From an uncultured virus (IMG/VR IMGVR_UViG_3300028840_003539) (lineage: Duplodnaviria > Heunggongvirae > Uroviricota > Caudoviricetes), in IMG/VR virus record IMGVR_UViG_3300028840_003539: a stretch of DNA of 20,000 nucleotides. One strand, 5' to 3'. Each line of letters starts with the position of its first letter. Within the stretch, counting starts at the first letter, position 1. A model generated the notes under the pieces. That model searched no databases. It had not been told where the DNA came from and was given only the letters and a program-made list of their open reading frames with translations. The translations under genes and the position numbers were made by a program. Shown here one piece after another: positions 2,370 to 19,830 of this stretch.

Positions 2370-3170
2370 ATGGCAGGCTGGAAAAAGCACGTAGTAGACG
2401 TGGCTCGTCTCAGCGCGCAAGTGAGTCAAGAGATGCAGAAGCATCTTGACGTCATTTTGGCAGAACGAATGTCGAAGCGCGCCGACCACGCACGTCTAGC
2501 AGCCTCGCAGGAAGCTCTCCGGCGGCTTCGTGAGCTGTGCCCAGGCATACGGGCATTTTCAGAGATGCCGCTGGAAGAAGCTGAAGCTGCAGTACGTGCG
2601 CTAGCTAGAGACAACCCGCGCGACCTGACCGAGGCCGACCTCAAGCACCTCGACGTGTCGAAGCTCGACTACGGCACGCGACGCCGGAAGCCCCGCGGGA
2701 CCTTCATCGAGCCGATCCGCAACCCCAGTGGTGCCGTCGCACGCTGCGAAGAGTTTCACGGCGACGGCGGCGCTTGTGATAGCTACGTCGAGAAGCAGCT
2801 CTGGATGCCCGGACCGATCGTGCTGATGGGTACCTGCATCGACTGCGGCTACAACGTCACCGACCGCAACAGCGAAAAGGACGGGCGCTACGTCCACGAC
2901 CACAAGTCCGGCGTCAAGCTCTACCGCCGCGCCAAGACCGGCGAGCGCTCGACGAAGACGCTCACGCCGCCCCGCCAGGTGTTCGTGCTAGGCGACTGGC
3001 TCGGCTGCACGTACGACGACGGTGACGGTGAAAAAGAACTGACAGGCTCGTCGCGCGTCAAGGCGTGCACCGACAACGGCAGGCGGCTGTTCGCCATTCA
3101 TTCGACCAAGGGCTGCCTCTACGTGATCTCGGGCGGCAGCTTCCGCATCCGAGACTGGATGTACGACTAG
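2370..3170 (+). CDS. Hypothetical protein with two NP motifs and a beta-rich C-terminal domain
   Basis: 266-aa ORF filling the gap; RDNP and IRNP motifs; C-terminal domain with EEFHG, YVHDH, GGSFRI. Confidence 0.8.
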   Translation: MAGWKKHVVDVARLSAQVSQEMQKHLDVILAERMSKRADHARLAASQEALRRLRELCPGIRAFSEMPLEEAEAAVRALARDNPRDLTEADLKHLDVSKLDYGTRRRKPRGTFIEPIRNPSGAVARCEEFHGDGGACDSYVEKQLWMPGPIVLMGTCIDCGYNVTDRNSEKDGRYVHDHKSGVKLYRRAKTGERSTKTLTPPRQVFVLGDWLGCTYDDGDGEKELTGSSRVKACTDNGRRLFAIHSTKGCLYVISGGSFRIRDWMYD

Positions 3171-3178
3171 GAGCTAGC

Positions 3179-4516
3179 ATGCCTACGAAGCCCAAGAGGT
3201 TGATGATCGAAGTCGATCTCAGGACCGAGCCAGGAACGCTGCACTCTATTCCTGCGCGGCCAGGCGACATCGTCATCGACGGCGATGGCAATGAAATCGC
3301 CACGGATCTCGACTACAACCGCCGTAAGGCTGCCATCGACTTCGTCGATCCGACGCAGCCGCCGCCGACGGAAGTAGTCGGTGACCGCTACGTCTTGAAC
3401 CACACGCCAGGAACAGTCCATCCAGGTTGGGACAATGCGACGCAAGGTGACATCGTCGAGTTCGTCGAAGGACCGCTTCCGACCCTCAATAACTGGGTCG
3501 CACAGCCCCCGGTCATCGGCTGGACGATCTATATAACGGCGCTGGACTACGACCTCCTGTTCGACAAGACCTCGACCTGGGTGCCGCGCATCCTCACAGG
3601 CGTTCCTGCAACGCGGTCAATCATAGCCGGCGCCGGCTTGGTCGGCGGCGGAAACCTGTCGGTGGACCGTACGATCGACGCCGTAGCGCATCCCGACGGG
3701 TCGATCGTCGTCAACCCGGACAACATCCAGGTCGGTGTGCTCGCGACTGATGGGCAGCACGGCGTACGCGGCGGCGGGACGCAGCACGCGTTGGCCACAA
3801 CGCTCGTCGCTGGCTTCATGTCGCCCGCAGACAAGGCGAAGCTCGACGCGGCTGCGCTGTCGTTGTCTGACACGCCACCAGTCGACGTGACCAAGTCACC
3901 TGCCGCGGCAGGCATAGCAACCGAGGCCTCGCGCCAAGACCACAAACACGACGTTGCTACTGCAACCGCGGTTGAGTTGACCGACACGACGAACGCAGAA
4001 GGGGCAGCGACGTCGCTGGCGCGGTCCGACCACAAGCACGCGCATGGAGACCGTGGAGGAGGTTCCCTGCATGCGTTGGCCACGACGCTCGTTGCCGGCT
4101 TCATGTCGCCGGCGGACAAGACGAAGCTCGACGGCCTTACGCCAGGCGGCGGCGGACAGAAGACCGAACACATCTCCATCCAGTCTGGGGACAGGGCGTA
4201 CAGCAAGACCGGGCTCGGCGTCTACTTAGTCGTCGGCCGGTTCCGTTTCCGCGGGACGACTGTAATGGGTACGCCCGCCAACATCCGAGCGAACTACTGG
4301 CAGTCAGGCACTCCTGGTGCCGCCGTGTGGTGCAGAATCCAGGACGCCACCAACAACAACACAATTTGTAGCTCGGCGACGACGAGCCAACTCGACGACG
4401 AGTTCAGAGACCTCGGCGCGTTGAGTTCCTTGCCAGCAGGCCCTGCTACTTTCGAGGTGCAGGTAAAAGCGTCTGGCGGGCAGGTCCGAATCGGCGGCGT
4501 CATCATCGAATACTAG
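3179..4516 (+). CDS. Fibre/spike-like protein (DUF2793-like segment, fibre repeats, C-terminal beta domain)
   Basis: AGGAG RBS before ATG 3179. PPP..GDRY..W..GDI..W..P..GW resembles DUF2793. AGAGLVGGGNLSVDRT, two HALATTLVAGFMSPADKxKLD repeats and two RxDHKH motifs are typical of phage fibre shafts. Confidence 0.75.
   Translation: MPTKPKRLMIEVDLRTEPGTLHSIPARPGDIVIDGDGNEIATDLDYNRRKAAIDFVDPTQPPPTEVVGDRYVLNHTPGTVHPGWDNATQGDIVEFVEGPLPTLNNWVAQPPVIGWTIYITALDYDLLFDKTSTWVPRILTGVPATRSIIAGAGLVGGGNLSVDRTIDAVAHPDGSIVVNPDNIQVGVLATDGQHGVRGGGTQHALATTLVAGFMSPADKAKLDAAALSLSDTPPVDVTKSPAAAGIATEASRQDHKHDVATATAVELTDTTNAEGAATSLARSDHKHAHGDRGGGSLHALATTLVAGFMSPADKTKLDGLTPGGGGQKTEHISIQSGDRAYSKTGLGVYLVVGRFRFRGTTVMGTPANIRANYWQSGTPGAAVWCRIQDATNNNTICSSATTSQLDDEFRDLGALSSLPAGPATFEVQVKASGGQVRIGGVIIEY
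3785..4132 (+). repeat. Intragenic 63-nt (21-aa) direct repeat, copies 3785-3847 and 4070-4132
   Basis: HALATTLVAGFMSPADKAKLD vs HALATTLVAGFMSPADKTKLD, with mostly synonymous nucleotide differences; both are preceded by HGxRGGG. Confidence 0.9.
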
Positions 4517-5597: not shown

Positions 5598-7223
5598 ATG
5601 GCTGCTGGAGATACCAAGAAACCACACGTCAGTATAGATCCCGGTCAGCACAGCCCAGGCGTGCTGCCTACGCGGCCAGTCGGACCAGGCGAAATCCTCG
5701 TCGACGGCGACGGCAACCCCATCGGCGGCAGCACGATCATCATACCCGTCGATCCATCCGGCGATCTCGCGCTCGCGGAAGTCAACACGCTCGCTGAAAC
5801 TCTCCGCAGCGAATTGCTGCAGAAGATTCAGGACGCCTTCGACGGCGCTGTCGCCATGATGGAAGCGTCGGACGATGAAGTAGTCGACGAGCAAGAAGAC
5901 ACCGCGCTGGCAACCATCGAAGCACTAACGGTGAAGCTCCACGCGGAGATCACCCAGGTAGGCGAAGACGCCCTCTCGGGCGCCATCGCGCTCGTCGATG
6001 CGCTCAGGTTGGAGCTGGCGGAATCCGGCAGTGACACCGAAAGCGAGATTGCACAGTTCGAGCATGACATCTCCGAGCTGGAGCAACGTGTCACTGACTG
6101 CTTCGCTGGCGCGGTCGCACTCATCGACAAGCTCGCGCTCGACGTAGCTGTCGCGAAGCAGCACGCCACCGCGGTAGGCGCAGCACTTGCAAACGTGCAG
6201 GAATCGCTGCAGCAGGAAATCTCCGACTGCTTCGCTAGCGCGGTCGCGCTCGTCGACAAGCACACGTGCTGCGACGATGCGTACGCGCTGGTAGATGCAG
6301 CCGCCGCGGTTGCGAAGAGTGATCTGGAAGAAGCCATCGATGACGTCTTTGGTGGCACCGTCGCGCTCGTCGACAGGTCCGCGCTGAAGCTAACCTCAGC
6401 CATTCATACCGAAGCTGGCGGGCTGGTGAGCAATGCCGCCGTAGGTTTGCAAGCTGCACTAGATCAGGCGACCGATTCTCTCCAGGCCGCCATCGCCGGC
6501 GTGGAAGATCGCCTCACGGCGCGCGTCGGCAGGCTGTACGAAGACCACACGACCGACGCTACGCCAAAGGTCATCGCGACGGTTACTCCGTCGCTCACAC
6601 AAACCGTGCGCATCCTGGTCAAAATCCAGGCGCGACGAGCTGACCGGCGGCAGCACGCCGCGTACACGCTCGAAGCACTCGCGCGTGCCGTCGCGGCATG
6701 GGACACCTTGACGCTTTCCGTCGCGATCCCGAGCGACGGCGAAACAGTGACGATCGACGCCGTCACGTACACCTGGCGTGCTGCTCCGGTCGCAGCCTAC
6801 GACGTCAACATCGGTGCCGACATCCAAGGTTCGATCGACAATCTCGTTGCCGCAATCAACCTGACTGGCACAGCCGGTGTCGACTACGGCCCTGGAACGC
6901 TGCAGCATCCAACCGTCTCGGCTGTGAAGACGTCGACGACGACGATGGACGCGGTCTACAAGACGCCAGGAGTCGTAGGAAACGGAATCGTCGCGACCGA
7001 GACGATGGTCAACGGCGTTTGGACCAACGGCGGCGCAGGGCTGGCTGGTGGCTCGGACATGCTGGTGACGCTCTTCACCGACGACGACGATGTCGAAGAC
7101 GACGTCGCCTGGGACGCCACGATGGCTGCGGGAGCTGGTCAGGACGTCGAGGTCAAGGTGATTGGCAAAGCCCTCGCCGACATTCGTTGGCTGGCCGAGG
7201 TTCGCGTCATCGAGCAACCGTGA
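5598..7223 (+). CDS. Large fibre/spike-like protein: shared N-terminal module, acidic helical repeats, C-terminal beta domains
   Basis: GAGGAG RBS; N-terminal PG.L...P..PGEILVDGDGN shared with the 3179 protein; five D.(F/L)..(A/T)(V/I)A(L/M) repeats; Thr/Val/Gly-rich C-terminal half. Confidence 0.8.
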   Translation: MAAGDTKKPHVSIDPGQHSPGVLPTRPVGPGEILVDGDGNPIGGSTIIIPVDPSGDLALAEVNTLAETLRSELLQKIQDAFDGAVAMMEASDDEVVDEQEDTALATIEALTVKLHAEITQVGEDALSGAIALVDALRLELAESGSDTESEIAQFEHDISELEQRVTDCFAGAVALIDKLALDVAVAKQHATAVGAALANVQESLQQEISDCFASAVALVDKHTCCDDAYALVDAAAAVAKSDLEEAIDDVFGGTVALVDRSALKLTSAIHTEAGGLVSNAAVGLQAALDQATDSLQAAIAGVEDRLTARVGRLYEDHTTDATPKVIATVTPSLTQTVRILVKIQARRADRRQHAAYTLEALARAVAAWDTLTLSVAIPSDGETVTIDAVTYTWRAAPVAAYDVNIGADIQGSIDNLVAAINLTGTAGVDYGPGTLQHPTVSAVKTSTTTMDAVYKTPGVVGNGIVATETMVNGVWTNGGAGLAGGSDMLVTLFTDDDDVEDDVAWDATMAAGAGQDVEVKVIGKALADIRWLAEVRVIEQP

Positions 7224-9461: not shown

Positions 9462-10934
9462 GTGCCACTCACAGCACTGCGTCTAGTCAACAAACCAGGG
9501 CGCCGCCGCCGCAAGCCCTTCCCGAGCTACAGCAGCGCCGGCGCGAAGCAGAAGAAACGGAGGAAACCCGTGCCGCAGACCAGGCGCAAGGTACTCAAGC
9601 GCGTCAAGATGGGCAAGGGCTACCGCTGGAGCTACGGCGGGAAGCTGATCCCCGAAGCGAAGGCCAGGCGCATCAAGGCCGCGCGCAAGCTCACCGGGAC
9701 CAAGCCGCGCAGCAACCCGACGCGCAAGAAGCGCACGGCTGTGAAGAAAGCGCCGGCCCGCAAGCGCAGCGTGCGCTACGTGCGCAGCCTGACCAAGCCT
9801 GCCCGTGCTCGCATTCGTCCGATCAAGAAGACGGCCGCGAAGCCTCGCACGATCAGTCGTGTCGCTGCGGCGCGTGCAAACCCAAGGCGCAAGAAGCGCG
9901 TGTCGACTGCGACGCGCAAGAAGATCTCCGCCGCTCTGAAGCGGTATCACCGAGGGACCAAGCGGGCGAGCAGCAACCCGCCGACGAAGAAAAGGAGAAA
10001 GACCGTGGCAAAGAAGACCACGCGTCGTCGCAAGACCACTCGGCGGCGCACCAGAAGCAATCCTCCCCGCAAGCCCAGGTACGGCACCAAGGCGTACTAC
10101 CGCTGGCTCGGCAAGAAGGGCGCAGCGGCGCGTCGGCGCAAGAGCGGAGCCCCGAAGCGGCGCCGCAAGACGACCACCAAGCGTCGTGTGCGCTTCAAGC
10201 GCGGCGCGACCCGCTACAGCAAGCAGCGCGTGCTGCTGCGGCGCAAGCCCCGCGGCCCGCGTGTCAGACACCGCATCCGTCGGCGAACCTACTCACGGAA
10301 GGGCCAATCGCACTACCGCTACAGGATCGTCAAGCGCAACCCAGGCCTCAAGGACATCGGGGCGCTGTTCGGCAAGGTGCTGCCGATCTACGGCGGCTTC
10401 ATCATCTCGCGCATCGGCGCGTCCGCCATCAACACGTACCTCGTGCCGAAGATGGGCGGCTTGCAGACCTCGCTCGGCAAGGCGGCTCCGCTGCTGTCGC
10501 CGGCGCTGCTGCTCGGCCTGTCGGTCTTCGCTGGCCCGAAGGTGCTCAAGGGCAAGACCGGCGGCCAGATCCTCGAAGGCCTGCAGCTCGGCAGCGTCCT
10601 GCAGATCTTCGACGGCATCGGCAAGCAGTTCATCGCGCCGGCGCTCGCCGGCCAGCCCATGCTCGCGTCGGCCTTCGGCGGCTACGACGACATGGGCGTG
10701 ATGGGCATGGGCGCCTACATGGCCGACCCGACCGGCTACAGCCTGCCGCCCGCGCACGCGACGATGGAGCCCGGCATGGGGCTGGACGTCCACGAGGCGA
10801 TGGCGCTCGACGCCTACGTCGCCGACGACGGCCTCGGCCTGAGCGTGGAGGAAGCCCTGGCTGACTCCGAGAGCGCGTACATGCAGCGCGGTGGCGCTGG
10901 TGGCTCGCTCGCCAAGACGGTGTTCACCTACTAG
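9462..10934 (+). CDS. Arg/Lys-rich protamine-like protein with hydrophobic helices and an acidic Gly/Met tail (putative genome-condensing core/membrane protein)
   Basis: GGAGG then GTG at 9462; about 290 aa almost devoid of acidic residues, with five xxNP motifs; then amphipathic/hydrophobic helices and a GMG/GLG acidic tail. A second in-frame RBS+GTG occurs at 10005. Confidence 0.8.
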   Translation: MPLTALRLVNKPGRRRRKPFPSYSSAGAKQKKRRKPVPQTRRKVLKRVKMGKGYRWSYGGKLIPEAKARRIKAARKLTGTKPRSNPTRKKRTAVKKAPARKRSVRYVRSLTKPARARIRPIKKTAAKPRTISRVAAARANPRRKKRVSTATRKKISAALKRYHRGTKRASSNPPTKKRRKTVAKKTTRRRKTTRRRTRSNPPRKPRYGTKAYYRWLGKKGAAARRRKSGAPKRRRKTTTKRRVRFKRGATRYSKQRVLLRRKPRGPRVRHRIRRRTYSRKGQSHYRYRIVKRNPGLKDIGALFGKVLPIYGGFIISRIGASAINTYLVPKMGGLQTSLGKAAPLLSPALLLGLSVFAGPKVLKGKTGGQILEGLQLGSVLQIFDGIGKQFIAPALAGQPMLASAFGGYDDMGVMGMGAYMADPTGYSLPPAHATMEPGMGLDVHEAMALDAYVADDGLGLSVEEALADSESAYMQRGGAGGSLAKTVFTY

Positions 10935-10953
10935 GCCGCGCAGCGGTCTGGTG

Positions 10954-11013
10954 AAAGTAAACCGACCCGTAGGTGTGCCTGCGGGTCACTTTGCCCTGAC
11001 TTCATCCAGGGCA
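10954..11013 (+). promoter_or_regulatory. Two tandem hairpins in the leader of the capsid-like gene
   Basis: GACCCGTAGG-TGTG-CCTGCGGGTC (10964-10987) followed by ACTTT; TGCCCTG...CAGGGCA (10992-11013). Confidence 0.6.
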
Positions 11014-11074
11014 CGTGCGTGTCGGTTTCCTCCCGACGTTAAAAAAGGACGGTAGCGCACGAGGAGAAAGAAAG

Positions 11075-11683: not shown

Positions 11684-11743
11684 CACTTCCGCGGGCACGG
11701 CTACGCCCTTCGGGGTCACGCCTACCCGCTGTCGTGTGCCTCT

Positions 11744-11772
11744 GCCCCCCAGGGTACGCCCTGGGGGGCTTT
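11744..11772 (+). terminator. Perfect 11-bp hairpin with short U tract
   Basis: GCCCCCCAGGG-TACG-CCCTGGGGGGC then TTT. Confidence 0.65.
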
Positions 11773-11830
11773 CCTCTACCAAGGGTAGAGAGGTGCCGCC
11801 CACCATCAGCGGCCAAGGCAGGAGAAAACG

Positions 11831-12466
11831 ATGGCCCCGCAGCGGAGGAACAACAACGCTGGCGCTGTCATCGCCAACATGGCGATGCGCCTCCAGCATC
11901 ACGAGGCGCAGCTGCAGCAGCTCACCGCGCTTCAAAAAGCCACCGCGGATGCACCCAAGTGGATCGAGCAGATTCCTGGTCGCCGCGTGCCGTTCGGTGG
12001 CGTCATCGACATGCCGATCCCGGCAAACTCAACCTCGATGGTCAGTGGGCTCTTCAATGTCGCCGAAGACGGCCCGTTCGTCCTCACCGCCGTTGCCCTC
12101 TTCTACAAGCTGACCGAAGGCGACTTCGCAGGCATCTGGGGCTACGCGACGGCTGCTAGCTCACGCATCATTTCGACCTACCCCGCGGTAGGGTTCGTCG
12201 GGATGGACAAGCCGCACGTCACCAGCGGCGGCCTGCAGATCGTCGACCGGGGCAGCGACCGCCTCTGGCAAAGCAAGGAGCTTCCCACGTCGCTGTTCAG
12301 CGAAGAAGCTGGCGGCGTCTACGTGCTGCCCGTCGCGTGTCTGTTCGAACGCAGCAGCGCGGTCGAGGCGACGTTCGCGCCTGGCGTGGCGGTCGAGTAC
12401 GCGGGCCTGGTGGAGTGCATCCTGCTCGGCTACAAGATCGTCCAAGGACAGTCGTACCAGCCGTAA
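11831..12466 (+). CDS. Second beta-rich capsid-like protein (candidate single jelly-roll paralog)
   Basis: AGGAG RBS; N-terminal helix, then DGPFVLTAV..LQIVDRGSDR..LPVACLF..VEATF..CILLGYK. Confidence 0.6.
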   Translation: MAPQRRNNNAGAVIANMAMRLQHHEAQLQQLTALQKATADAPKWIEQIPGRRVPFGGVIDMPIPANSTSMVSGLFNVAEDGPFVLTAVALFYKLTEGDFAGIWGYATAASSRIISTYPAVGFVGMDKPHVTSGGLQIVDRGSDRLWQSKELPTSLFSEEAGGVYVLPVACLFERSSAVEATFAPGVAVEYAGLVECILLGYKIVQGQSYQP

Positions 12467-12477
12467 GGAGGCGTTAG

Positions 12478-13149
12478 ATGGCCGCCCCACGACGGCATGG
12501 ACATCCTTGGCGCCAGGCGCCGACGCCTACGGAGCGTGGCGGTGACCCCACTGCGCTTCGCGGCGAGCTGACGCCCGTCGGGCCGGCGCCTTCCAGAGCC
12601 ACCACCTTTCCCGTCAGGGAGATGGACGCCTGGATTCGGACGCTCCCACCCAAGCGCATCACGAACCTGGTGGTCAGCGGCGAGGTGAGGTACGACCACA
12701 CGCTAAACGTCGGGCAGAAGCTCTCGATCGTGCTGGCCCCACACGTGCCGCGGGAAGGCTACGTGTGGGTCATCAACGACATCGACTACTACGCGACGAT
12801 ACCGCCGGATGGACTGGTGGGACCGCCGCAGAACCTGGCCCCGGAAGCGCTGGTCGGCATCCTCCGCTGGGAGTTGCTGTTCGGCGGCACGGCGCCGCTG
12901 CTGACGCCCGCGCAGCGGATGTCGCCGTACGCGCCTGGGCCTGCGCAGTCGACGTCGGGCTGGCCGTGGCTGAACACGCCGTTCGGTCCACAGCGGATGC
13001 CAGCTTTCGCACTGTATTCGGCGGGCACCGAGGAAATCCGCGTCGACGTCACCGTCGAGGCTCTGCCGCGCTTCCCGATCACCCGGTTGGGCGCAAACCT
13101 ACACGGCTTCACGGTAGACGCGTCGCACTTCCCGACCACCTGGATGTGA
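12478..13149 (+). CDS. Third beta-rich capsid-like protein
   Basis: AAGGAGG RBS; Pro-rich N-terminus; VPREGYVWVINDIDYY..LRWELLF..IRVDVTV..ANLHGF. Confidence 0.55.
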   Translation: MAAPRRHGHPWRQAPTPTERGGDPTALRGELTPVGPAPSRATTFPVREMDAWIRTLPPKRITNLVVSGEVRYDHTLNVGQKLSIVLAPHVPREGYVWVINDIDYYATIPPDGLVGPPQNLAPEALVGILRWELLFGGTAPLLTPAQRMSPYAPGPAQSTSGWPWLNTPFGPQRMPAFALYSAGTEEIRVDVTVEALPRFPITRLGANLHGFTVDASHFPTTWM

Positions 13150-13155
13150 GTCGGG

Positions 13156-13313
13156 GTGTTGGAGGGCTTAGAAGGCAGTAATACGGCGATCTTGCGCAAG
13201 AACGAGAGGCTTAGGGGGTCGACTCGTAACTAGCGCGCGCAACAGCCGGAGCGACACCGGCACTGGGGCGGACAACCCTTTGCTGTACTACTGCCTTCTT
13301 GGCTCTCTGACAT
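13156..13313 (+). ncRNA. Unassigned highly structured intergenic RNA
   Basis: Long closing stem 13156-13189 / 13280-13313 (~31 bp, several G-U pairs on + strand, perfect AGAAGGCAGTA/TACTGCCTTCT core) enclosing several short hairpins. Confidence 0.55.
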
Positions 13314-13327
13314 GGTAGGATGGTGAC

Positions 13328-13744
13328 ATGTCACGATACGTCCTCGAACAGGGTCGTCGTCACAACCCCACCGCGTTTGCTCCACGTCCGTACCCGCGAG
13401 GCCAAGTCGGCTGGCCGGCCCAGCTGCTGACGCCCAACGCGAGCACGTACGTCGCGCCAGGCAGCACGCTGACCCACCTTGGGCAGGATGAGCCCAAGGA
13501 CAACAGCAAGCTGATCATGGGGCTCCTGCTCATCGCTGCGGCCATCGTCCTCTGGAAGCTAATCACGCCCGGCGCAGGGCGCAACCCCGGAGGCAAGAAT
13601 AAGGTCGCCCGCGTGTTCAAAGGCGCGAGCGGCTGGTACTACAAGCTTGCGCGCAAGAAGGCGCGTCGCTACGGCCCCTTCGACAGCGAGTGTGCCGCGA
13701 CCGAGGCAGCCGAACGCAAGGGCTACAGCGTAGTGGAGGATTAG
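13328..13744 (+). CDS. Single-pass membrane protein with two NP motifs
   Basis: AGGA RBS; RHNP, HLGQ, TM LIMGLLLIAAAIVLW, GRNP, then a small basic GWYY...YGPFDSE..A domain. Confidence 0.8.
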   Translation: MSRYVLEQGRRHNPTAFAPRPYPRGQVGWPAQLLTPNASTYVAPGSTLTHLGQDEPKDNSKLIMGLLLIAAAIVLWKLITPGAGRNPGGKNKVARVFKGASGWYYKLARKKARRYGPFDSECAATEAAERKGYSVVED

Positions 13745-13745
13745 C

Positions 13746-14039
13746 ATGGGCAAGCCACAGACGCCGCAGACCGCGCGCAGGCGCGCCGCGCGCATGGTCG
13801 ACGGTGCGAGCGCGAACCAAGCCTGGGGAAGCGCCCCTGACTTCGAAACCGCGGTCGAGGCTGCTACGGAGGCCCTGTACGACGCCGACTGGTGGGTCAC
13901 TGCTGTAACCAAGCATCGTGGCTTTCAACATCGGCTCACCCGTCCTGGCAGGCGCCGCATTCGCACGATGTCGCGTGCCCTGTTGCAGGCGGCAGACTTC
14001 CTCGCCTCGCTGTCCTACGCGTTCGAGGAGGAGGCCTAG
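13746..14039 (+). CDS. Hypothetical protein
   Basis: GGAGG RBS; fits exactly between neighbours with 1-nt gaps. Confidence 0.7.
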   Translation: MGKPQTPQTARRRAARMVDGASANQAWGSAPDFETAVEAATEALYDADWWVTAVTKHRGFQHRLTRPGRRRIRTMSRALLQAADFLASLSYAFEEEA

Positions 14040-14040
14040 C

Positions 14041-14445
14041 ATGCCCTACGCAAGCAAGGCCCAACACAGGCTCTTCCGCGCGATGGAGTCGCGGGGCGAG
14101 CTGCCCAAGGGCACCGCATCCCGCTGGATGCGCGAGACGGCGCACTACGAGAGCCTGCCAGAGTACGTGAGCGGCTTCGGCGCGGACGCTGAATCCCGCG
14201 ACACGTTCTACGACCTGGCGATCTTGGGCGCTGGCCTGCTCGGCGGCTTGGTGCTGCCGAAGCGTTACAAGATCTGGTCTTCGATCGCTGCTATCGGACT
14301 CGTCGTCACTCGGGGCTTCGCTAAGTCTTCGTGCCACGAGAAAGCGGCAGCGCTACACGCACGCGCAGCGGCGGGCGAGCAGGTCAAGACGCCGGAGATC
14401 GACTCCTGCATGGGCTTCTGGCCGAAGTTGAAGTTCGCGTCATGA
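14041..14445 (+). CDS. Membrane protein with N-terminal MPxxSKAQ..RGELPKGTA..W module
   Basis: GAGGAGG RBS; MPYASKAQHRLFRAMESRGELPKGTASRW..LPEYV, then SGFGA and two hydrophobic segments. Confidence 0.75.
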   Translation: MPYASKAQHRLFRAMESRGELPKGTASRWMRETAHYESLPEYVSGFGADAESRDTFYDLAILGAGLLGGLVLPKRYKIWSSIAAIGLVVTRGFAKSSCHEKAAALHARAAAGEQVKTPEIDSCMGFWPKLKFAS

Positions 14446-14657
14446 CGCAGTCGTACTACAGCTTTGGTCAGGCCACGACGCCCGCGACGACTGAGCCTGC
14501 AGCAGCGCAGCCGCCGACGCAGACCTTCTGGCAGCGGCATGGTGCAGAGATCATCGTGGGCACCATCACCGCGGTGACGGGCGCGCTGGCGGTCTACTTC
14601 GCCATGCGGCTAGTGGAGTTCCGCGACGTGGCACGCGCGCACGAGGCACGGGGGTGA
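14442..14657 (+). CDS. Small membrane protein
   Basis: ATGA overlap; MTQSYYSFGQ, Pro/Thr/Ala linker, TM IIVGTITAVTGALAVYFAM. Confidence 0.75.
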   Translation: MTQSYYSFGQATTPATTEPAAAQPPTQTFWQRHGAEIIVGTITAVTGALAVYFAMRLVEFRDVARAHEARG

Positions 14658-14660
14658 TCT

Positions 14661-15227
14661 GTGCCCTACGAACCGCTGGTCTACGTCGACGAAGGAGGCG
14701 AAGTCTTCGCCAACCCGCTGTCGTACGGTAGGAGCAAGCGTCGTTTCGTCGAGTTCCGGCGGGGTCGTGCAGCAGAACCTGGTCGATCGTACCGTGGGTT
14801 GCGTGTGCAGGTTGGTCTGATTCGCGAGCCCGGCTACGACCCGAAGGCTGCACCACACATCCGTGGCTCAGCGGACGTCTACGCACTGATTCGCGAGCAC
14901 GCCTACGATGACGTGCAGGAAGCCTTCTACGTCGTCCTGCTCAACGCACGCTCGCAAGTCCTCGGCATCTACGAAGCGCATCGCGGCACCATGACTGGCG
15001 TCGAGGTGCAACCGGCGGACGTGTTGAGGCCCGCCCTCGTTTCAGGTGCGGCAGCCATCGTCGTCGCACACAACCATCCAAGCGGCGACGCAGACCCGAG
15101 TCACGACGACAAGGCGTTGACGAAGCGCCTCACAGAAGCATGCAAAATCGTCGGTGTGCAACTTCTCGACCACCTCGTGATCGGCGAAGACAGCTACGTC
15201 AGCTTCGCGGACCGCGGGCTGCTCTGA
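14661..15227 (+). CDS. radC: RadC-like JAB/MPN domain protein
   Basis: QEAFYVVLLN...AHNHPSGDADPSHDDKALTKRL...LLDHLVIG..YVSF: intact E..HxH..S..D JAMM motif of the RadC family; lacks the N-terminal HhH part. Confidence 0.92.
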   Translation: MPYEPLVYVDEGGEVFANPLSYGRSKRRFVEFRRGRAAEPGRSYRGLRVQVGLIREPGYDPKAAPHIRGSADVYALIREHAYDDVQEAFYVVLLNARSQVLGIYEAHRGTMTGVEVQPADVLRPALVSGAAAIVVAHNHPSGDADPSHDDKALTKRLTEACKIVGVQLLDHLVIGEDSYVSFADRGLL

Positions 15228-16438
15228 TGCGCATGGAGCCTACGCTTTTTCTCGTCGGCCAGCTGCGCGAGATCATCCGCGAGCTGAACAGCGGTAGGTT
15301 CGCCTGGGACCTGGTCGCTGACACAGCCGTCACGATCGCTGGTGAAGGGCTCGACGTGGGCGAGTTGGGCGACCGCCTGCGCGAGGCCTACGAAGCCCGC
15401 AGCAAGCCGTTGGTGTGGCGTGCGATCACAATGACGGGCTGGCGGTGCTGGGAGCTGCTGCAGAAGCCTCTCGAAGCGGTCCCTGCTGCGGTCACAGATG
15501 AAAGTACGGACCGGCGACTCAGCCTCGGCATCACTGTCTTTGAGGGCGATGATGGACCACCCTTGGTGTCTGCGTGGTTTCACTGGCCGCGCGCGTTCTA
15601 CACCGAGCGTGTCGCAGCGGTGTCGAGCCGGGACGTGCGCTCGTTGATGTTCGGCGTGAGTTGGGCAGGCGCGCTGTCCGACGATGCGTTCGACATCTTC
15701 CATGGTTCCGTTGTTCCATCAGCGCGGATGCAACCGGCGCCGCGGCGATGTGGACGCCCACCCGCTGGGCGAGTCGTGGTGCGGCTCAGCGGCAACCGAT
15801 TGCCTGTAGGTGCGTCGGACGGCTACGAGGAAGCCTTCCTAAGCGTCCTTGGCGTCTACCGTGACTTGCCGAAGCTGCTTGAGCAAACGGCGAGGTTGAT
15901 CGATGCAGCTGCTGGGGTACGCGAAAACCCGCGGACGACAAAGATCAGGTTGTACCCTGACCTTCCCACTGGCGAGCCTCACTTCGAGGACGTAACAGCT
16001 GTCAGTCCACGCGGCGTTCCAGACTGGATGTTAGTCTCGGCGCCCACCGAAAGACACCGAACGCGCACGGGGCGCGTTCCGCCGGGTGGCTGGACGATCA
16101 CGCACAAGCCAACAGGGCTTGCGATCCTCCGCGGTCTGACCAGGGCAGACGCTGCACTCGCAGCTCGTGTGATCGCGCGCGAGGCACCCTGCCTGAAAGA
16201 CGTAGACGAAGTAGTCACCGACTGGTCACGCGACCCGCTGCGTTCCGCCTTCGAACTGATAGAGAAGCTGCGAAGCCTGCTCTCGCGCAAAGCGGACGTC
16301 TTGCGCGAAGGGCAGAACGTGCCGATGATTGCCGAGCTGATCCAGTACGACCTGATAGCGCCGCGCGAGCTGCAGAAGCTACCGCCGGCGACGCAGGTGG
16401 CGCTCGACGCCTGGCTGGAAACGGCGAAGGTGCGCTGA
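15227..16438 (+). CDS. Hypothetical multi-domain protein
   Basis: TGATG coupling at both ends; 403 aa; internal RENP; WTITHKPTGLAI segment in the C-terminal part. Confidence 0.7.
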   Translation: MRMEPTLFLVGQLREIIRELNSGRFAWDLVADTAVTIAGEGLDVGELGDRLREAYEARSKPLVWRAITMTGWRCWELLQKPLEAVPAAVTDESTDRRLSLGITVFEGDDGPPLVSAWFHWPRAFYTERVAAVSSRDVRSLMFGVSWAGALSDDAFDIFHGSVVPSARMQPAPRRCGRPPAGRVVVRLSGNRLPVGASDGYEEAFLSVLGVYRDLPKLLEQTARLIDAAAGVRENPRTTKIRLYPDLPTGEPHFEDVTAVSPRGVPDWMLVSAPTERHRTRTGRVPPGGWTITHKPTGLAILRGLTRADAALAARVIAREAPCLKDVDEVVTDWSRDPLRSAFELIEKLRSLLSRKADVLREGQNVPMIAELIQYDLIAPRELQKLPPATQVALDAWLETAKVR

Positions 16439-16947
16439 TGCCCGTTCATCCCCTCGCAGAACGCAAGCTGCCGCCGAGCCCCGGCACGAAGTTCGGAGCT
16501 GCACGCAGCGCAGCCGGCCGGCCGGCCGAGTGCGGCGGCGGGCACTGCGGCGTCGACCTGTACTACTGGAAAGCGGGGCTAGACCCGAACACAGGCATCG
16601 GCCGCCCCGTCTTTGCTGTCGCTGCCGGCAAGGTGATCGCGGCGAGCGAAAGCGATTCAGCGGGCAAGTACGTCTGGATCAAGCACGACAGCTTCCGCAG
16701 CCACTACGTTCATCTTGACAGCTACTTCGTCAGGACAGGCGACACGGTTGCCGAGGGGCAGCAGATCGGCACGTTGGGCCGCACGGGCATCACGACCGAC
16801 CCAGCGCATCTACACTTCGGCCTGTCGACGCTGGCCGGCAAATACTACGACCCTGAGCCCAAACTGCGCGTCTGGCCGCTCGTCGGTGGCGGCATCGGCT
16901 TGCTGCTCGTCGCCGCAGCGGTGCTCTACTGGTACTGGAAGAAGTGA
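16438..16947 (+). CDS. M23 family peptidase with C-terminal membrane anchor
   Basis: HCGVDL (HxxxD), GRPVFAVAAGKV, YVHL, V..GD.V..GQQIG..G.TG, HLHF (HxH); C-terminal GIGLLLVAAAVLYWYWKK. Confidence 0.92.
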   Translation: MPVHPLAERKLPPSPGTKFGAARSAAGRPAECGGGHCGVDLYYWKAGLDPNTGIGRPVFAVAAGKVIAASESDSAGKYVWIKHDSFRSHYVHLDSYFVRTGDTVAEGQQIGTLGRTGITTDPAHLHFGLSTLAGKYYDPEPKLRVWPLVGGGIGLLLVAAAVLYWYWKK

Positions 16948-17852
16948 TGCGGCGCAACCCGCTCGACCCGGACGCGCACGCGCGCGACCCGCACCCGACA
17001 GCGCTGGCGCGGGGGCGGGACGACCGGCGCGGCGTGCACACGACACCCGACAAGCTCACGGCGATCTGGTACGCGATGATGAAGGCATCGCACTCGCCAC
17101 CCGGCGAGGACGACACCGGCGTCTTATTTCTGCTTGACACGCAAGGGCTCGAAGCCCACCCGGACTTCGACGCCGAGATCGAGCGCAAGCACACCTACTT
17201 GCGCGACCTGGCGTGGCTGGTCACCGGCGAGTTCGAGCTAGACCCTGAAAATCTACAAGACCACGACCGCCTAGCCGACCTCATCCGAGGTGACCTCGAA
17301 GACTACGAGACCGAACACCAGGTCGACGTCGGAAACAGCGTGCTGTCGACGATCTACTTCGGCCCAATGGGACGCGGCGTAGGCAACCAGCGTATCCTCG
17401 GCGCGCTGCTAGAGATGGCCGAAGGCGGCGATGCAGACGAGATCATCGAGGTGCTGAAGAAATACTACAAGAGCAACGACCTCGAAGACCTGCCGCTGGA
17501 GTGGTTCGCCTACGCGATGCAGCAGTGGCGATACTTCGTCCCAGTCGGCTTCGACCGCGTCGTGCGAGTCGAGATCGTGCGCCCGTGGAACGACTACCTC
17601 TACGACGAAACCGACCACGACGCGTTGAACGAAGCGGAAAGCTCCGGGCTGCCGTTCTTCATGCTGGACGACGTCTACAGCGGCCTTGACGAAGGCGACT
17701 TCGAGACCGCGACGGTCTACGAGCGGAAGCCTCGCCCAGGAGCCCGGCTAGAATGGCACGGCACGAACGTCGCGCGGGCACGCGCAGCGTTCCCTCAACT
17801 TGCCAGCAAAATCGAGAACGTCTGGAAGACGCCTTTCGTCGCGGTAACTTGA
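16947..17852 (+). CDS. Acidic protein with ADP-ribosyltransferase-like motifs in permuted order
   Basis: Starts MRRNP; GVHTT..TAIWYA..GVLFLLD near the N-terminus, QQWRYF in the middle, EWHGT near the C-terminus. Confidence 0.6.
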   Translation: MRRNPLDPDAHARDPHPTALARGRDDRRGVHTTPDKLTAIWYAMMKASHSPPGEDDTGVLFLLDTQGLEAHPDFDAEIERKHTYLRDLAWLVTGEFELDPENLQDHDRLADLIRGDLEDYETEHQVDVGNSVLSTIYFGPMGRGVGNQRILGALLEMAEGGDADEIIEVLKKYYKSNDLEDLPLEWFAYAMQQWRYFVPVGFDRVVRVEIVRPWNDYLYDETDHDALNEAESSGLPFFMLDDVYSGLDEGDFETATVYERKPRPGARLEWHGTNVARARAAFPQLASKIENVWKTPFVAVT

Positions 17853-17891
17853 AGTTGCAGGCCGCGCGCTAACTGGAGTAAGCTGCTGCAC

Positions 17892-18344
17892 ATGTCACGC
17901 GCTAACGGAACACCGAAGCCCCTCCTCCGCCCGGACAAAGCCTGCGGGTTCACCTACAACCACAAGGCCGAGGCCGACCGGCACTTCTACCTGTACGATG
18001 ACGTCAGCGACCTCGTGTTTGAAGCCGACGGCTACTTGCAGCCGCAAGCCGAAGACGAAGACCCCAGCAAGCAGCGCTGGACGATCTACCTGATGTGCCC
18101 CGCGTGCCATCAGACGCTGCGTCTCGACAGTGAGAAGAAGCCGTTCGAGGTAACCGAGCGCGGCATCGAGACGGGTGAGCCCATCGGCTGTTCGTACTGG
18201 CTCCACAACGTGGACGGCTATACCGGCATGTGTCCCTTCCGGGGCGAGTTGCAGCCGCCGAAGTCGCCTGAATGGGGCGAGGTGCGAACCGACGTTGGCG
18301 TCGTGCGGGTCAAGATCGACGCCTGGATTCGTCGAGCGTTTTGA
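17892..18344 (+). CDS. Zn-ribbon-like hypothetical protein
   Basis: GGAG RBS; MCPACH ... IGCSY ... MCPF. Confidence 0.75.
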   Translation: MSRANGTPKPLLRPDKACGFTYNHKAEADRHFYLYDDVSDLVFEADGYLQPQAEDEDPSKQRWTIYLMCPACHQTLRLDSEKKPFEVTERGIETGEPIGCSYWLHNVDGYTGMCPFRGELQPPKSPEWGEVRTDVGVVRVKIDAWIRRAF

Positions 18345-18389
18345 GCTAGAGTTTTTCAGCGCCACCGTGCGCAACGCTAGGAGCCGGAG

Positions 18390-18860
18390 ATGAGCTGGAA
18401 GGACTACGTCAACATCTACACGATCGGTGGCGCCGTTGCGGGCGGCTACGTCGGGCACTCCAAGTACGGGAAAAAGCACGGTTATACCGCGCCCGTCGTT
18501 GGCGCGATCGGCGGGCTCGCTGCCGGCTTGCTCGTGCAGAAGCTCGTCGGTGGGCAGCAAGCGAAGCCCGCTCAGGTCGCCGCCGGCCAGCAGCCGGCCG
18601 CGCAGGTGCAGCAACCCGCCGGCGGCCAGGGCGAGTACGTCGACCTAGACGGCATGGGCGAGTACGTGCCGCCGCCTTCGCCGAACGCCAGCGCAGCGCA
18701 GCGCGCCGAGTACGAGGCACAGCAGGCCGCCTTCGAAAACCTCGGCTCGTTGTCGGGCAGCGACGGCCTCGGCTCGTTGTCGGGCACGCCCGGCTTCGAC
18801 GCTGACGCCATCGACTACGCCGAGATCTTGGGCGAGGACGGCGGCAGCGACTTCAACTAG
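18390..18860 (+). CDS. Glycine-zipper membrane protein with Gln/Ala linker and acidic tail
   Basis: AGGAG RBS; IGGAVAGGYVG and VVGAIGGLAAGLLV; GMGEY and LGSLSG x2. Confidence 0.8.
   Translation: MSWKDYVNIYTIGGAVAGGYVGHSKYGKKHGYTAPVVGAIGGLAAGLLVQKLVGGQQAKPAQVAAGQQPAAQVQQPAGGQGEYVDLDGMGEYVPPPSPNASAAQRAEYEAQQAAFENLGSLSGSDGLGSLSGTPGFDADAIDYAEILGEDGGSDFN
18740..18786 (+). repeat. Exact 20-nt direct repeat (LGSLSG x2)
   Basis: CCTCGGCTCGTTGTCGGGCA at 18740-18759 and 18767-18786. Confidence 0.9.
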
Positions 18861-18871
18861 CGGAGGCGGCG

Positions 18872-19549
18872 ATGCCGGGGAAGCTGGGCTTCGACCCGAA
18901 CTGCGAGGTGTGCCAGGGCGACGGCTACCTCGACCTCTACACCGGGCACTTGGAGCAGTCGGTCATGCCGCCCCGGTGCCCGGCGTGCAACGCCACGCCA
19001 GTCGAAGTCAAGCCGGCGTGGCCTGACGACGACGCTGACGGCTGGCTCGACGGCGTCACGCGCAAGCCTGCACGCTTCACCGGCGGCAAGCTCGACCCGA
19101 TAACAGTCGACACCATCGTGATCCACCGCTACCACCGCGGCTTCTGGAATGCTGGGCCGCGCTACTTCGCCAACCCGACGACGAGCGACCGACGAACCGG
19201 CGAGATCATCCCACGCTACGTCTCAGCCCACTTCAGCGTGCACAAGCCGGGCTGGTTGCGCATGCTGACGCAGCACGCGCCACTGAGCGTCGTGTGCTGG
19301 CATGCGCCGCCCTACAACTTCAGGTCGATCGGCATCGAGCACGATGCCGGGCCGAAGGGGCTCAAGGAGCCGTGGTGGGAGGAGACAATCGTCGAGAGCG
19401 TGAAGTTGGTCGAGGCGTTGCTGAAGCAGCTGCCCAACGTCAAGCAGCTCGTCTCGCACCGCTACATCTGCCCGAAGAACCGTCGTGACCCGGGCAAGAG
19501 CTTCCCGTGGGAGCGGTACGAGCACTTCGGGCTGGAGATCATCAGGTAG
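18872..19549 (+). CDS. N-acetylmuramoyl-L-alanine amidase (Amidase_2) with N-terminal Zn finger; putative endolysin
   Basis: GGAGG RBS; IVIH, VSAHF, WHA, NFRSIGIEH, SHR, RRDPG..FPW motifs; N-terminal CEVCQGDG...CPAC. Confidence 0.9.
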   Translation: MPGKLGFDPNCEVCQGDGYLDLYTGHLEQSVMPPRCPACNATPVEVKPAWPDDDADGWLDGVTRKPARFTGGKLDPITVDTIVIHRYHRGFWNAGPRYFANPTTSDRRTGEIIPRYVSAHFSVHKPGWLRMLTQHAPLSVVCWHAPPYNFRSIGIEHDAGPKGLKEPWWEETIVESVKLVEALLKQLPNVKQLVSHRYICPKNRRDPGKSFPWERYEHFGLEIIR

Positions 19550-19671
19550 ACCTATCGGGAACGGCCTGCTGCTCCTCGCACGGGTTGGGCGGGCCAGCGC
19601 AGCCCTTGCCGGCCGTGGGCCGTTCCCGTCTATTCCCGTCTATCCCCGCCTCGATCGCCGGCTAGTAGCCG

Positions 19672-19830
19672 TCATGCATGTAATGAGGCGACACGCCCGT
19701 CCAGGTGGAGGTACCGAAGTGTAGTTGGTCCTTTGGGCCCAACCAGCTGGACCTGTTTGACTATGGCACCGTGTTTCTTTGCATATTCAATTAGCTCCCC
19801 AAACGGAAAGCCAGGCATGGGGTAAGGCAT
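19672..19830 (-). CDS. 52-aa minus-strand ORF (possibly truncated; loosely HicA-like)
   Basis: MPYPMPGFPFGELIEYAKKHGAIVKQVQLVGPKGPTTLRYLHLDGRVASLHA*; GGAG RBS 7 nt upstream; promoter-like element upstream; lower GC than the rest of the window. Confidence 0.5.
   Translation of the reverse strand: MPYPMPGFPFGELIEYAKKHGAIVKQVQLVGPKGPTTLRYLHLDGRVASLHA

Follow-up and report, generated by a model that had tools for sequence, protein, structure and literature searches.

The spacer between two protein genes of an uncultivated virus encodes a structured RNA that belongs to no catalogued family and that has been kept in its relatives by matching base changes. The element spans positions 13156-13313 on the + strand of the 20-kb stretch of DNA analysed here (hereafter, the window), where its two ends pair as a long rod closing a branched head. 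Its own fold, its relatives and a covariance model all support it, and they confirm the structured RNA that an initial annotation had observed at this place. We read the element tentatively, with a probability of roughly 0.45, as a module of a polycistronic viral mRNA whose rod would be a substrate of an RNase III-type enzyme.

A long rod between two co-oriented genes

The initial annotation had described a rod of about 31 bp, and every stem that it named is present in the sequence. The 5′ arm (13156-13189, + strand) and the 3′ arm (13280-13313, + strand), whose pairing is kept in the relatives, form three consecutive stems. The outer one (13156-13167/13302-13313) has 12 bp, four of them G·U; the middle one (13170-13180/13289-13299) has 11 bp, all perfect; and the inner one (13182-13189/13280-13287) has 8 bp with two G·U. 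A 2x2 loop parts the outer stem from the middle one, and a 1x1 A/C mismatch parts the middle stem from the inner one. On the + strand, G·U accounts for 6 of the 31 rod pairs. RNAfold draws the rod with 32 pairs, adding one U·G to the 31.

Folded as RNA with RNAfold, the + strand of the element reaches a minimum free energy (MFE) of -79.2 kcal/mol, a z-score of -7.76 that none of 200 shuffles equalled. The - strand reaches -62.3 kcal/mol (z -5.4). With DNA folding parameters the two strands are alike and both do better than shuffles (z -4.5 and -4.1). The raw energy is unexceptional in a window of 63% G+C, where segments of 160 nt average -60 kcal/mol (s.d. 8.5) and some coding segments of this length fold to -84 kcal/mol. 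What stands out is the single long local rod and the score relative to shuffles of the element's own composition. Among the 25 inverted repeats listed for the window, the rod is the sole one with arms less than 100 nt apart.

Within the rod, the MFE fold of the head contains a long irregular hairpin (hairpin A, 13193-13237, + strand), in which TGCGC (13193-13197) pairs with GCGCG (13233-13237) around an ACGAG/CTCGT stem, and a second hairpin (13245-13261, + strand) in which GCCGG and CCGGC enclose the 7-nt loop AGCGACA. Two of the three inner hairpins proposed initially, ACGAG/CTCGT and GCCGG/CCGGC, are therefore part of this fold. The third, TCTTG/CAAGA (13190-13201), exists in the sequence but goes unused, being displaced by the pairing of TGCGC with GCGCG.

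The element takes up 158 of the 178 nt between the upstream stop codon (13147-13149) and the downstream ATG (13328), in agreement with the earlier remark that it fills nearly the whole intergenic space. Upstream lies P0002, the gene of a 223-aa protein (12478-13149, + strand; GC3 0.83), and downstream lies P0001 (13328-13744, + strand), which encodes a conserved small membrane protein of 138 aa. The start region of P0001 (13317-13330, + strand) comprises a Shine-Dalgarno (SD)-like AGGA (13317-13320), a 7-nt spacer and the ATG, with the SD beginning 4 nt past the rod. Both flanking genes and nearly all convincing open reading frames (ORFs) of the window are on the + strand. A consensus scan of 12000-14500 found no sigma-70-like promoter and no terminator-like site. 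We rejected an intrinsic terminator at the element itself: the rod is followed by GGTAGGATGG instead of a U-run, and the same scan found none.

The window is read almost wholly on the + strand, and its recognisable products point to a bacterial virus. A tail-fibre-like repeat protein of 483 aa (3065-4516) has a weak match to a PHROG tail fibre family (E 1.3e-4). Its ORF carries 92-nt direct repeats at 3757-3848 and 4042-4133 that are 80% identical and encode a repeated peptide ending GFMSPADKxKLD, which looks like an internal repeat of a fibre protein. Another ORF, at 5598-7223 (541 aa, no family match), holds, at 5760-6390, a ~129-nt (43-aa) unit repeated in tandem five or six times with 67-90% identity. 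Further along are a RadC-like JAB protein (14661-15227), an M23 peptidase of 169 aa (16438-16947) and an Amidase_2 protein of 225 aa (18872-19549). The stretch 16438-19549 runs from the M23 peptidase through a 302-aa ORF and two shorter ones (150 aa and 156 aa) to Amidase_2, and the 156-aa product has a weak glycine-zipper 2TM match. Small membrane proteins adjoin both enzymes, and by its gene content this stretch is a likely lysis or cell-wall module. Most other ORFs of the window had no Pfam or PHROG match. Strong hairpins also occur in other spacers, at 10930-11020 (z -4.6), 11684-11830 (z -3.8) and 19545-19690 (z -3.4). Near 11745-11780 the hairpin GCCCCCCAGGG...CCCTGGGGGGC is followed by CTTTCCTCT, and at 19545-19690 a long hairpin stands directly past the amidase gene; these other spacer hairpins appear terminator-like or stabiliser-like.

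Compensatory changes and strand in the relatives

Scanning JGI metagenome contigs with protein alignment A1 yielded 10 loci: the window's own sequence (L056), seven relatives (L057-L063; 45-51% identity) and two loci (L064 and L065) that we disregarded as 16-residue matches. Searched gene by gene, P0002 has 19 relatives at 45-76% identity and P0001 has 13. Five pairs of P0002 and P0001 relatives have longest contigs of equal length, which suggests that the two are neighbouring genes there. All seven relatives, which represent five distinct sequences, carry an element of 150-165 nt in the same spacer. That spacer, of ~170-190 nt, follows the P0002 homologue in every case, and the P0001 homologue comes next wherever the locus is long enough. 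Every one of these spacers folds as a long rod with a branched head, and L060, L061 and L062 share one identical element.

Aligning these elements showed that the fold has been kept by compensatory changes. The alignment comprises six distinct sequences from three deep lineages, namely the window, L057 and a clade of L058, L059, L060 and L063 (the L058 clade). Its RNAalifold consensus has 44 pairs, 17 of which have changed on both sides with pairing kept, against 5.4 in column shuffles (0 of 500 reach it); these counts reflect few independent events and a consensus structure taken from the very sequences tested. Paired cells make up 93.5% of the observed alignment and 84.9% of the shuffles, and again none of the 500 shuffles reaches the observed value. 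When partners were slid by 1-3 columns, only 35-51% of cells were paired and two to five pairs had double changes.

Taken by itself, the rod has a consensus of 28 pairs and 95% of cells paired; its arms are only 50-62% identical between lineages. Eleven of the 28 pairs have changed on both sides, seven on one side only, seven are invariant and three depart only by unpaired cells. Within the 5′ arm, the block GGCAG (13174-13178, + strand) is invariant in six of six sequences; its partner at 13291-13295 (+ strand) is CTGCC in five of the six and CCGCC in L057. Over shorter distances the element is conserved more strongly than the gene upstream. Within the L058 clade it is 82-92% identical, compared with 78-81% for the upstream gene overall and 67-72% at third codon positions.

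A covariance model of the six sequences (R1) matches the window at 13154-13315, where the + strand scores 108 bits and the - strand 21. Each of L056-L063 has exactly one copy by this model; L064, L065 and the rest of the 20-kb window have none. A closer comparison comes from a 219-nt contig of another sample, 92% identical to the window over 13155-13371, in which two substitutions fall in the rod. Both pairs are kept: 13308 T>C turns G·U into G-C, and 13312 A>G turns U-A into U·G. The comparison with variants covers this 219-nt contig; other short DNA fragments, which mostly diverge from the window, were left out.

The relatives also fix the position of the element with respect to its genes. 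At all loci the rod starts 3-14 nt past the upstream stop and ends 9-14 nt ahead of the downstream start. The window and L057 have their SD a little past the rod, and in the L058 clade four of the six letters of the SD GAGGAG fall within the rod's 3′ arm. A further observation concerns the other end of the rod. Directly upstream of it, four of the five distinct relatives carry GTGATAT(C)/GTGATAC (L057:3094-3106, L058:3682-3692, L060:3682-3697 and L063:435-445), a motif that is absent from L059 and the window, overlaps the stop codon in L057 and looks like an extended -10 box. The relatives that bear it may have a promoter at the rod's base.

The G·U pairs of the rod had been taken initially as a sign of RNA-level selection on the + strand, and the alignment upholds this view. 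Of its 168 rod cells, 137 are Watson-Crick, 23 G·U, 3 A·C and 5 other. The excess of G·U, 23 cells against 3 for A·C, speaks for the + strand because those 23 cells are mismatches on the opposite strand, and the compensatory changes in the relatives point the same way. Across the family, covariance-model scores lie at 108-180 bits for the + strand and at 21-52 for the - strand. The + strand also gives the better fold in five of the six members; in L057 the two strands tie. We rejected a small coding ORF in the spacer, since the window's spacer has stops in all six frames and a 1-nt indel separates the L057 version of the best conserved motif from that of the L058 clade.

This strand asymmetry makes a DNA-level role very unlikely, whether as a cruciform or single-stranded hairpin serving as a replication, packaging or recombination site or as a REP/MITE-like relic. 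Such a role would suit the finding that both strands beat shuffles with DNA parameters, and the element sits just past a stop codon, as REP-like repeats often do. The rod's G·U count and the strong strand dependence of the covariance score argue against it, as do the single copy in the 20-kb window and the single copy per related locus. No patchy presence of the MITE or REP kind was seen: the element occupies one syntenic place, the same spacer, in seven of seven relatives at 45-51% protein identity, and its arms have diverged compensatorily, which vertical inheritance under a pairing constraint explains and mobility does not. The scan of 30 window ORFs also turned up no gene for an integrase, a transposase or a replication protein.

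A DNA-level reading could also appeal to the rod's 11-mer AGAAGGCAGTA, which equals 1.5 units of a heptamer repeat that forms hairpins in Acidobacteria; no heptamer arrays occur in the 20-kb window. We met these repeats in 55 bacterial-genome loci (L001-L055) that match the rod-core pattern, and rejected them as relatives because they are unrelated tandem-heptamer hairpins. In them, (GGCAGWA)n faces (TWCTGCC)n across 40-100 nt, in intergenic positions that are often a few bases past a stop codon (for example, L012:5001-5127, L007:5001-5130 and L038:5001-5129). They occur mainly in metagenome-assembled genomes (MAGs) of Acidobacteria (Pyrinomonadaceae, Blastocatellia and Chloracidobacterium). 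A three-unit heptamer 19-mer is present 125 times in genome G001, 30 times in G005, 17 times in G003, twice in G004 and not at all in G002, and its reversed control is absent from these genomes except for 10 occurrences in G004. Five of the loci had no Rfam match, and we found no description of such arrays among the literature matches listed. The GGCAG core is common to the rod and the heptamer hairpins as well, and this sharing may be a coincidence.

Comparison with known RNA families placed the element outside all of them, as the initial annotation had supposed. Rfam 15 gave no match at gathering score in the 20-kb window. With the limit relaxed to E 10 over 13050-13450, the sole match was HOTTIP_1 (11 bits, E 7.1), on the - strand and outside the element, and with a limit of E 1 the five related loci gave two matches, both outside the element. 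ARAGORN found no tRNA or tmRNA genes in the window. No Rfam riboswitch family matched in the window or the five related loci, and a closing helix of 28-32 bp would be far too stable for riboswitch-like switching. A retron has no counterpart here either: the 30 window ORFs scanned include no reverse transcriptase family, and the element is flanked by genes for a beta-sandwich protein (223 aa) and a membrane protein (138 aa).

Several further collections yielded no relatives. The DNA of 12400-14100 had no match, in near or distant search modes, among 50,697 phage records, and two large window proteins had none there by tblastn. IMG/VR viral contigs gave no match with both flanking proteins, with alignment A1 or with the clade-specific RNA motif. 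A degenerate family pattern hit viral contigs four times, and we dismissed all four as chance because each scored below 8 bits by the covariance model. Neither the five genomes reached through loci nor a sample of 401 from the phylum of G001 yielded the P0002 family.

The branched head and the flanking proteins

Read 5′ to 3′, the relatives' heads consist of a short helix, a hairpin of variable length, a G+C-rich hairpin of 4-5 bp with a GNRA-type loop, and a small hairpin with GGACA in its loop. The variable hairpin is short in L060 and long in L058, L059 and L063, with its stem kept. Judged by eye, the loops atop the G+C-rich hairpin are of the GNRA type in five relatives (GGAA, GAAAG, GAGAA and GAGAAA). 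The window's head is only 36-47% identical to these heads and has no GNRA hairpin, and for that low identity the homology of individual head hairpins is uncertain. Comparing the folds by eye, it is uncertain whether the window's hairpin A is the counterpart of the relatives' variable hairpin; near the position of its GCCGG/CCGGC hairpin, the relatives have a 5-bp G+C-rich hairpin with a GNRA-type loop.

Two head sequences are conserved across large distances. The segment that best matches the relatives' heads is GGGGCGGACAACCC (13265-13278, + strand), which contains the motif GG-Y-GGACA-M-C and can be drawn as a small hairpin with GGACA (13270-13274) in its loop; the window's MFE fold does not form this hairpin. 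The motif is present in six of six distinct sequences. The other, GGCTCGACTGCAGG, is the same in L057 and the L058 clade, though the rods of these two are 62% identical. Two further readings of the head were tried and rejected: a tRNA-like or T-loop reading of CUCGACU has no flanking stem by eye, and a pseudoknot between the GGACA loop and GUCC of the 3′ arm fails in the window, which has no such GUCC.

A plain processing site needs neither a 90-nt branched head nor conserved loops, so the RNase III model leaves the function of the head unexplained. Because of this, two rival readings keep a share of our belief. The first, doubtful though deserving of weight, is that the element yields a stand-alone viral non-coding RNA (ncRNA) acting in trans, with a functional head that might serve, for instance, as decoy or scaffold towards a protein of the host or the virion, and a rod that would process or protect it, as the stems of rRNA precursors do. 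Head motifs conserved beyond the needs of pairing, GG-Y-GGACA-M-C in all six sequences and GGCTCGACTGCAGG in L057 and the L058 clade, argue for it, together with the greater conservation of the element than of synonymous sites. So do the relatives' GNRA-type loops, identified by eye in five of them, which are typical of tertiary-folded RNAs. The surroundings argue against it: the scan of 12000-14500 gave it no promoter-like or terminator-like signal, and the element is squeezed to within 3-14 nt of its neighbour genes. The poor alignment of the window's head and its missing GNRA hairpin would be odd for a conserved trans-acting surface, and the family's folds, inspected by eye, revealed no conserved pairing potential among the head loops or with sequence nearby.

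The pRNA of phage phi29 offers a precedent for a virus-encoded RNA of this general build. It has ~120-174 nt, with a helix of its 5′ and 3′ ends closing a multi-helix junction, and RNAs of the phi29 type carry two mutually complementary head loops for ring formation. The present element resembles pRNA in being virus-encoded, of similar size and closed by a helix of its 5′ and 3′ ends over a multi-helix junction. Unlike pRNA, it has no Rfam match, and no conserved loop complementarity was evident by eye. It is also embedded between protein genes, has no promoter or terminator consensus in our scan and belongs to a G+C-rich, unrelated lineage. By analogy, the head, freed from the late mRNA when the rod is cut, might be a new kind of virus-encoded RNA acting with P0002 in a lineage of uncultivated DNA viruses. 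There it could be a cofactor of assembly or packaging or associate with the virion, in a role like that of pRNA but unrelated to it; we consider this quite improbable.

The second rival reading involves the flanking proteins. For P0002, an AF2 model (pLDDT 64) shows a beta-sandwich (residues 56-217) behind a disordered, basic (Arg/His-rich) N-terminal arm. It matches viral jelly-roll capsid, cement and TNF-like folds weakly (best Foldseek E 7.7e-3; VIA Z <=6.7; BFVD E 1.9e-4) and no Pfam or PHROG family, and judging from the model, P0002 is probably a virion structural protein with a jelly-roll-like core. P0001 has one transmembrane helix (residues 60-79), a Lys/Arg-rich basic linker and a C-terminal domain of three strands and a helix (beta-beta-beta-alpha), with no Pfam match and no significant fold match.

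The coat protein of RNA phages recognises a hairpin that lies where the next gene begins. A translational operator of this kind, in which the basic arm of P0002 or the basic C-terminal domain of P0001 would bind GGCAG/CUGCC or the GGACA loop and so set the level of P0001, is an unlikely reading of the element. It would account for the linkage of P0002, element and P0001 at every locus (seven of seven relatives), although plain operon order explains that linkage equally. It would also suit the invariant sequence block within an otherwise covarying helix, the element's place immediately ahead of the P0001 ribosome-binding site, and the modelled proteins, with the Arg/His-rich arm and jelly-roll-like core of P0002 and the Lys/Arg-rich linker and beta-beta-beta-alpha domain of P0001. 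Neither protein gives an RNA-binding Pfam or fold signal, however: P0001 has no fold match, and those of P0002 are generic beta-sandwich matches.

A candidate processing module in a viral mRNA

The initial annotation had offered three roles, a viral ncRNA, an RNase III processing element and a regulator of the downstream ribosome-binding site; any of these would fit the anatomy. In the reading that we favour, that of an RNase III-type substrate in a polycistronic mRNA, the element would be transcribed within an mRNA running from the structural-protein gene P0002 into the membrane-protein gene P0001. Its 5′ and 3′ ends would pair as a rod of 28-32 bp with one or two small internal loops, and this rod would be cut by the host's double-strand-specific RNase III. 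Cleavage would uncouple the two cistrons, allowing them to differ in stability and translation. It would also remove the helix that abuts the downstream SD (and overlaps it in one clade), freeing the ribosome-binding site, and would set loose an RNA of ~100-130 nt made up of the branched head and a short remnant of the rod. Separating cistrons and removing a helix from an SD are ordinary phage biology. The invariant GGCAG/CUGCC and the GGACA loop of all lineages, with the GNRA-capped hairpin of the relatives, suggest that they have a specific partner, be it a protein or a tertiary contact. The fold, its conservation, its strand and its place relative to the genes are what the analysis shows; that the genes are co-transcribed, that RNase III cuts the rod, that P0001 is affected and that the head has a role are what we infer from them.

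Intercistronic RNase III signals are familiar from phage mRNAs, among them the R sites of the T7 early region and the N-leader and sib sites of lambda. The element is like them in lying between co-oriented genes of what is probably a viral operon, near the downstream ribosome-binding site and with no terminator, and in having a stem of at least two helical turns with small internal loops. It is unlike them in being about three times larger and without sequence relation to them, and its cleavage is a prediction. Its stem closes a 90-nt branched head with conserved loops rather than a simple hairpin loop, and its helix contains the invariant GGCAG/CUGCC block.

An idealised Escherichia coli RNase III substrate is described as a helix of 22 bp, or two helical turns (PMC3867540). 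The rod, with 31-32 bp and a consensus of 28 pairs, exceeds this E. coli reference. Internal loops can limit RNase III to one strand, leaving 3′ hairpins that stabilise an mRNA, and the sequences flanking 16S and 23S rRNA form long helices that RNase III cuts (both PMC3867540). As in those rRNA-precursor stems, the flanks of a structured RNA pair with each other, and cutting would free the inner RNA from a longer transcript; unlike them, the element encloses only ~90 nt and lies in a putative viral protein-coding operon. In its working it would be most like intercistronic phage RNase III signals and rRNA processing stems, and it stands outside the catalogued families.

Comparative genomics has predicted orphan structured-RNA motifs in phages and metagenomes (PMC10690425, PMC2864571), with more than 10,000 candidate motifs in one such study (PMC10690425). 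The element is like these in being an intergenic fold supported by covariation, with no function assigned, from an uncultivated virus. Its head motif did not occur in the portion of the PMC10690425 supplement that was searched, and Rfam 15 does not hold the element.

Structured RNAs within phage operons are a little-charted layer of viral gene control, and this element is currently one more well-supported orphan RNA motif, from a lineage without a cultured member. Its build is unusual, in that a helix of nearly three turns bridges two successive genes, from where the first ends to where the second begins, and holds a conserved branched domain inside it; the whole has been retained while the flanking proteins diverged to 45% identity. 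Small, self-contained and set in a simple reporter context, the element is easily testable. Should the rod prove to be an RNase III site, the element would do two things in little space, dividing a viral mRNA and producing a small RNA; should the head bind a protein of the virus or its host, the two would form a new RNA-protein pair.
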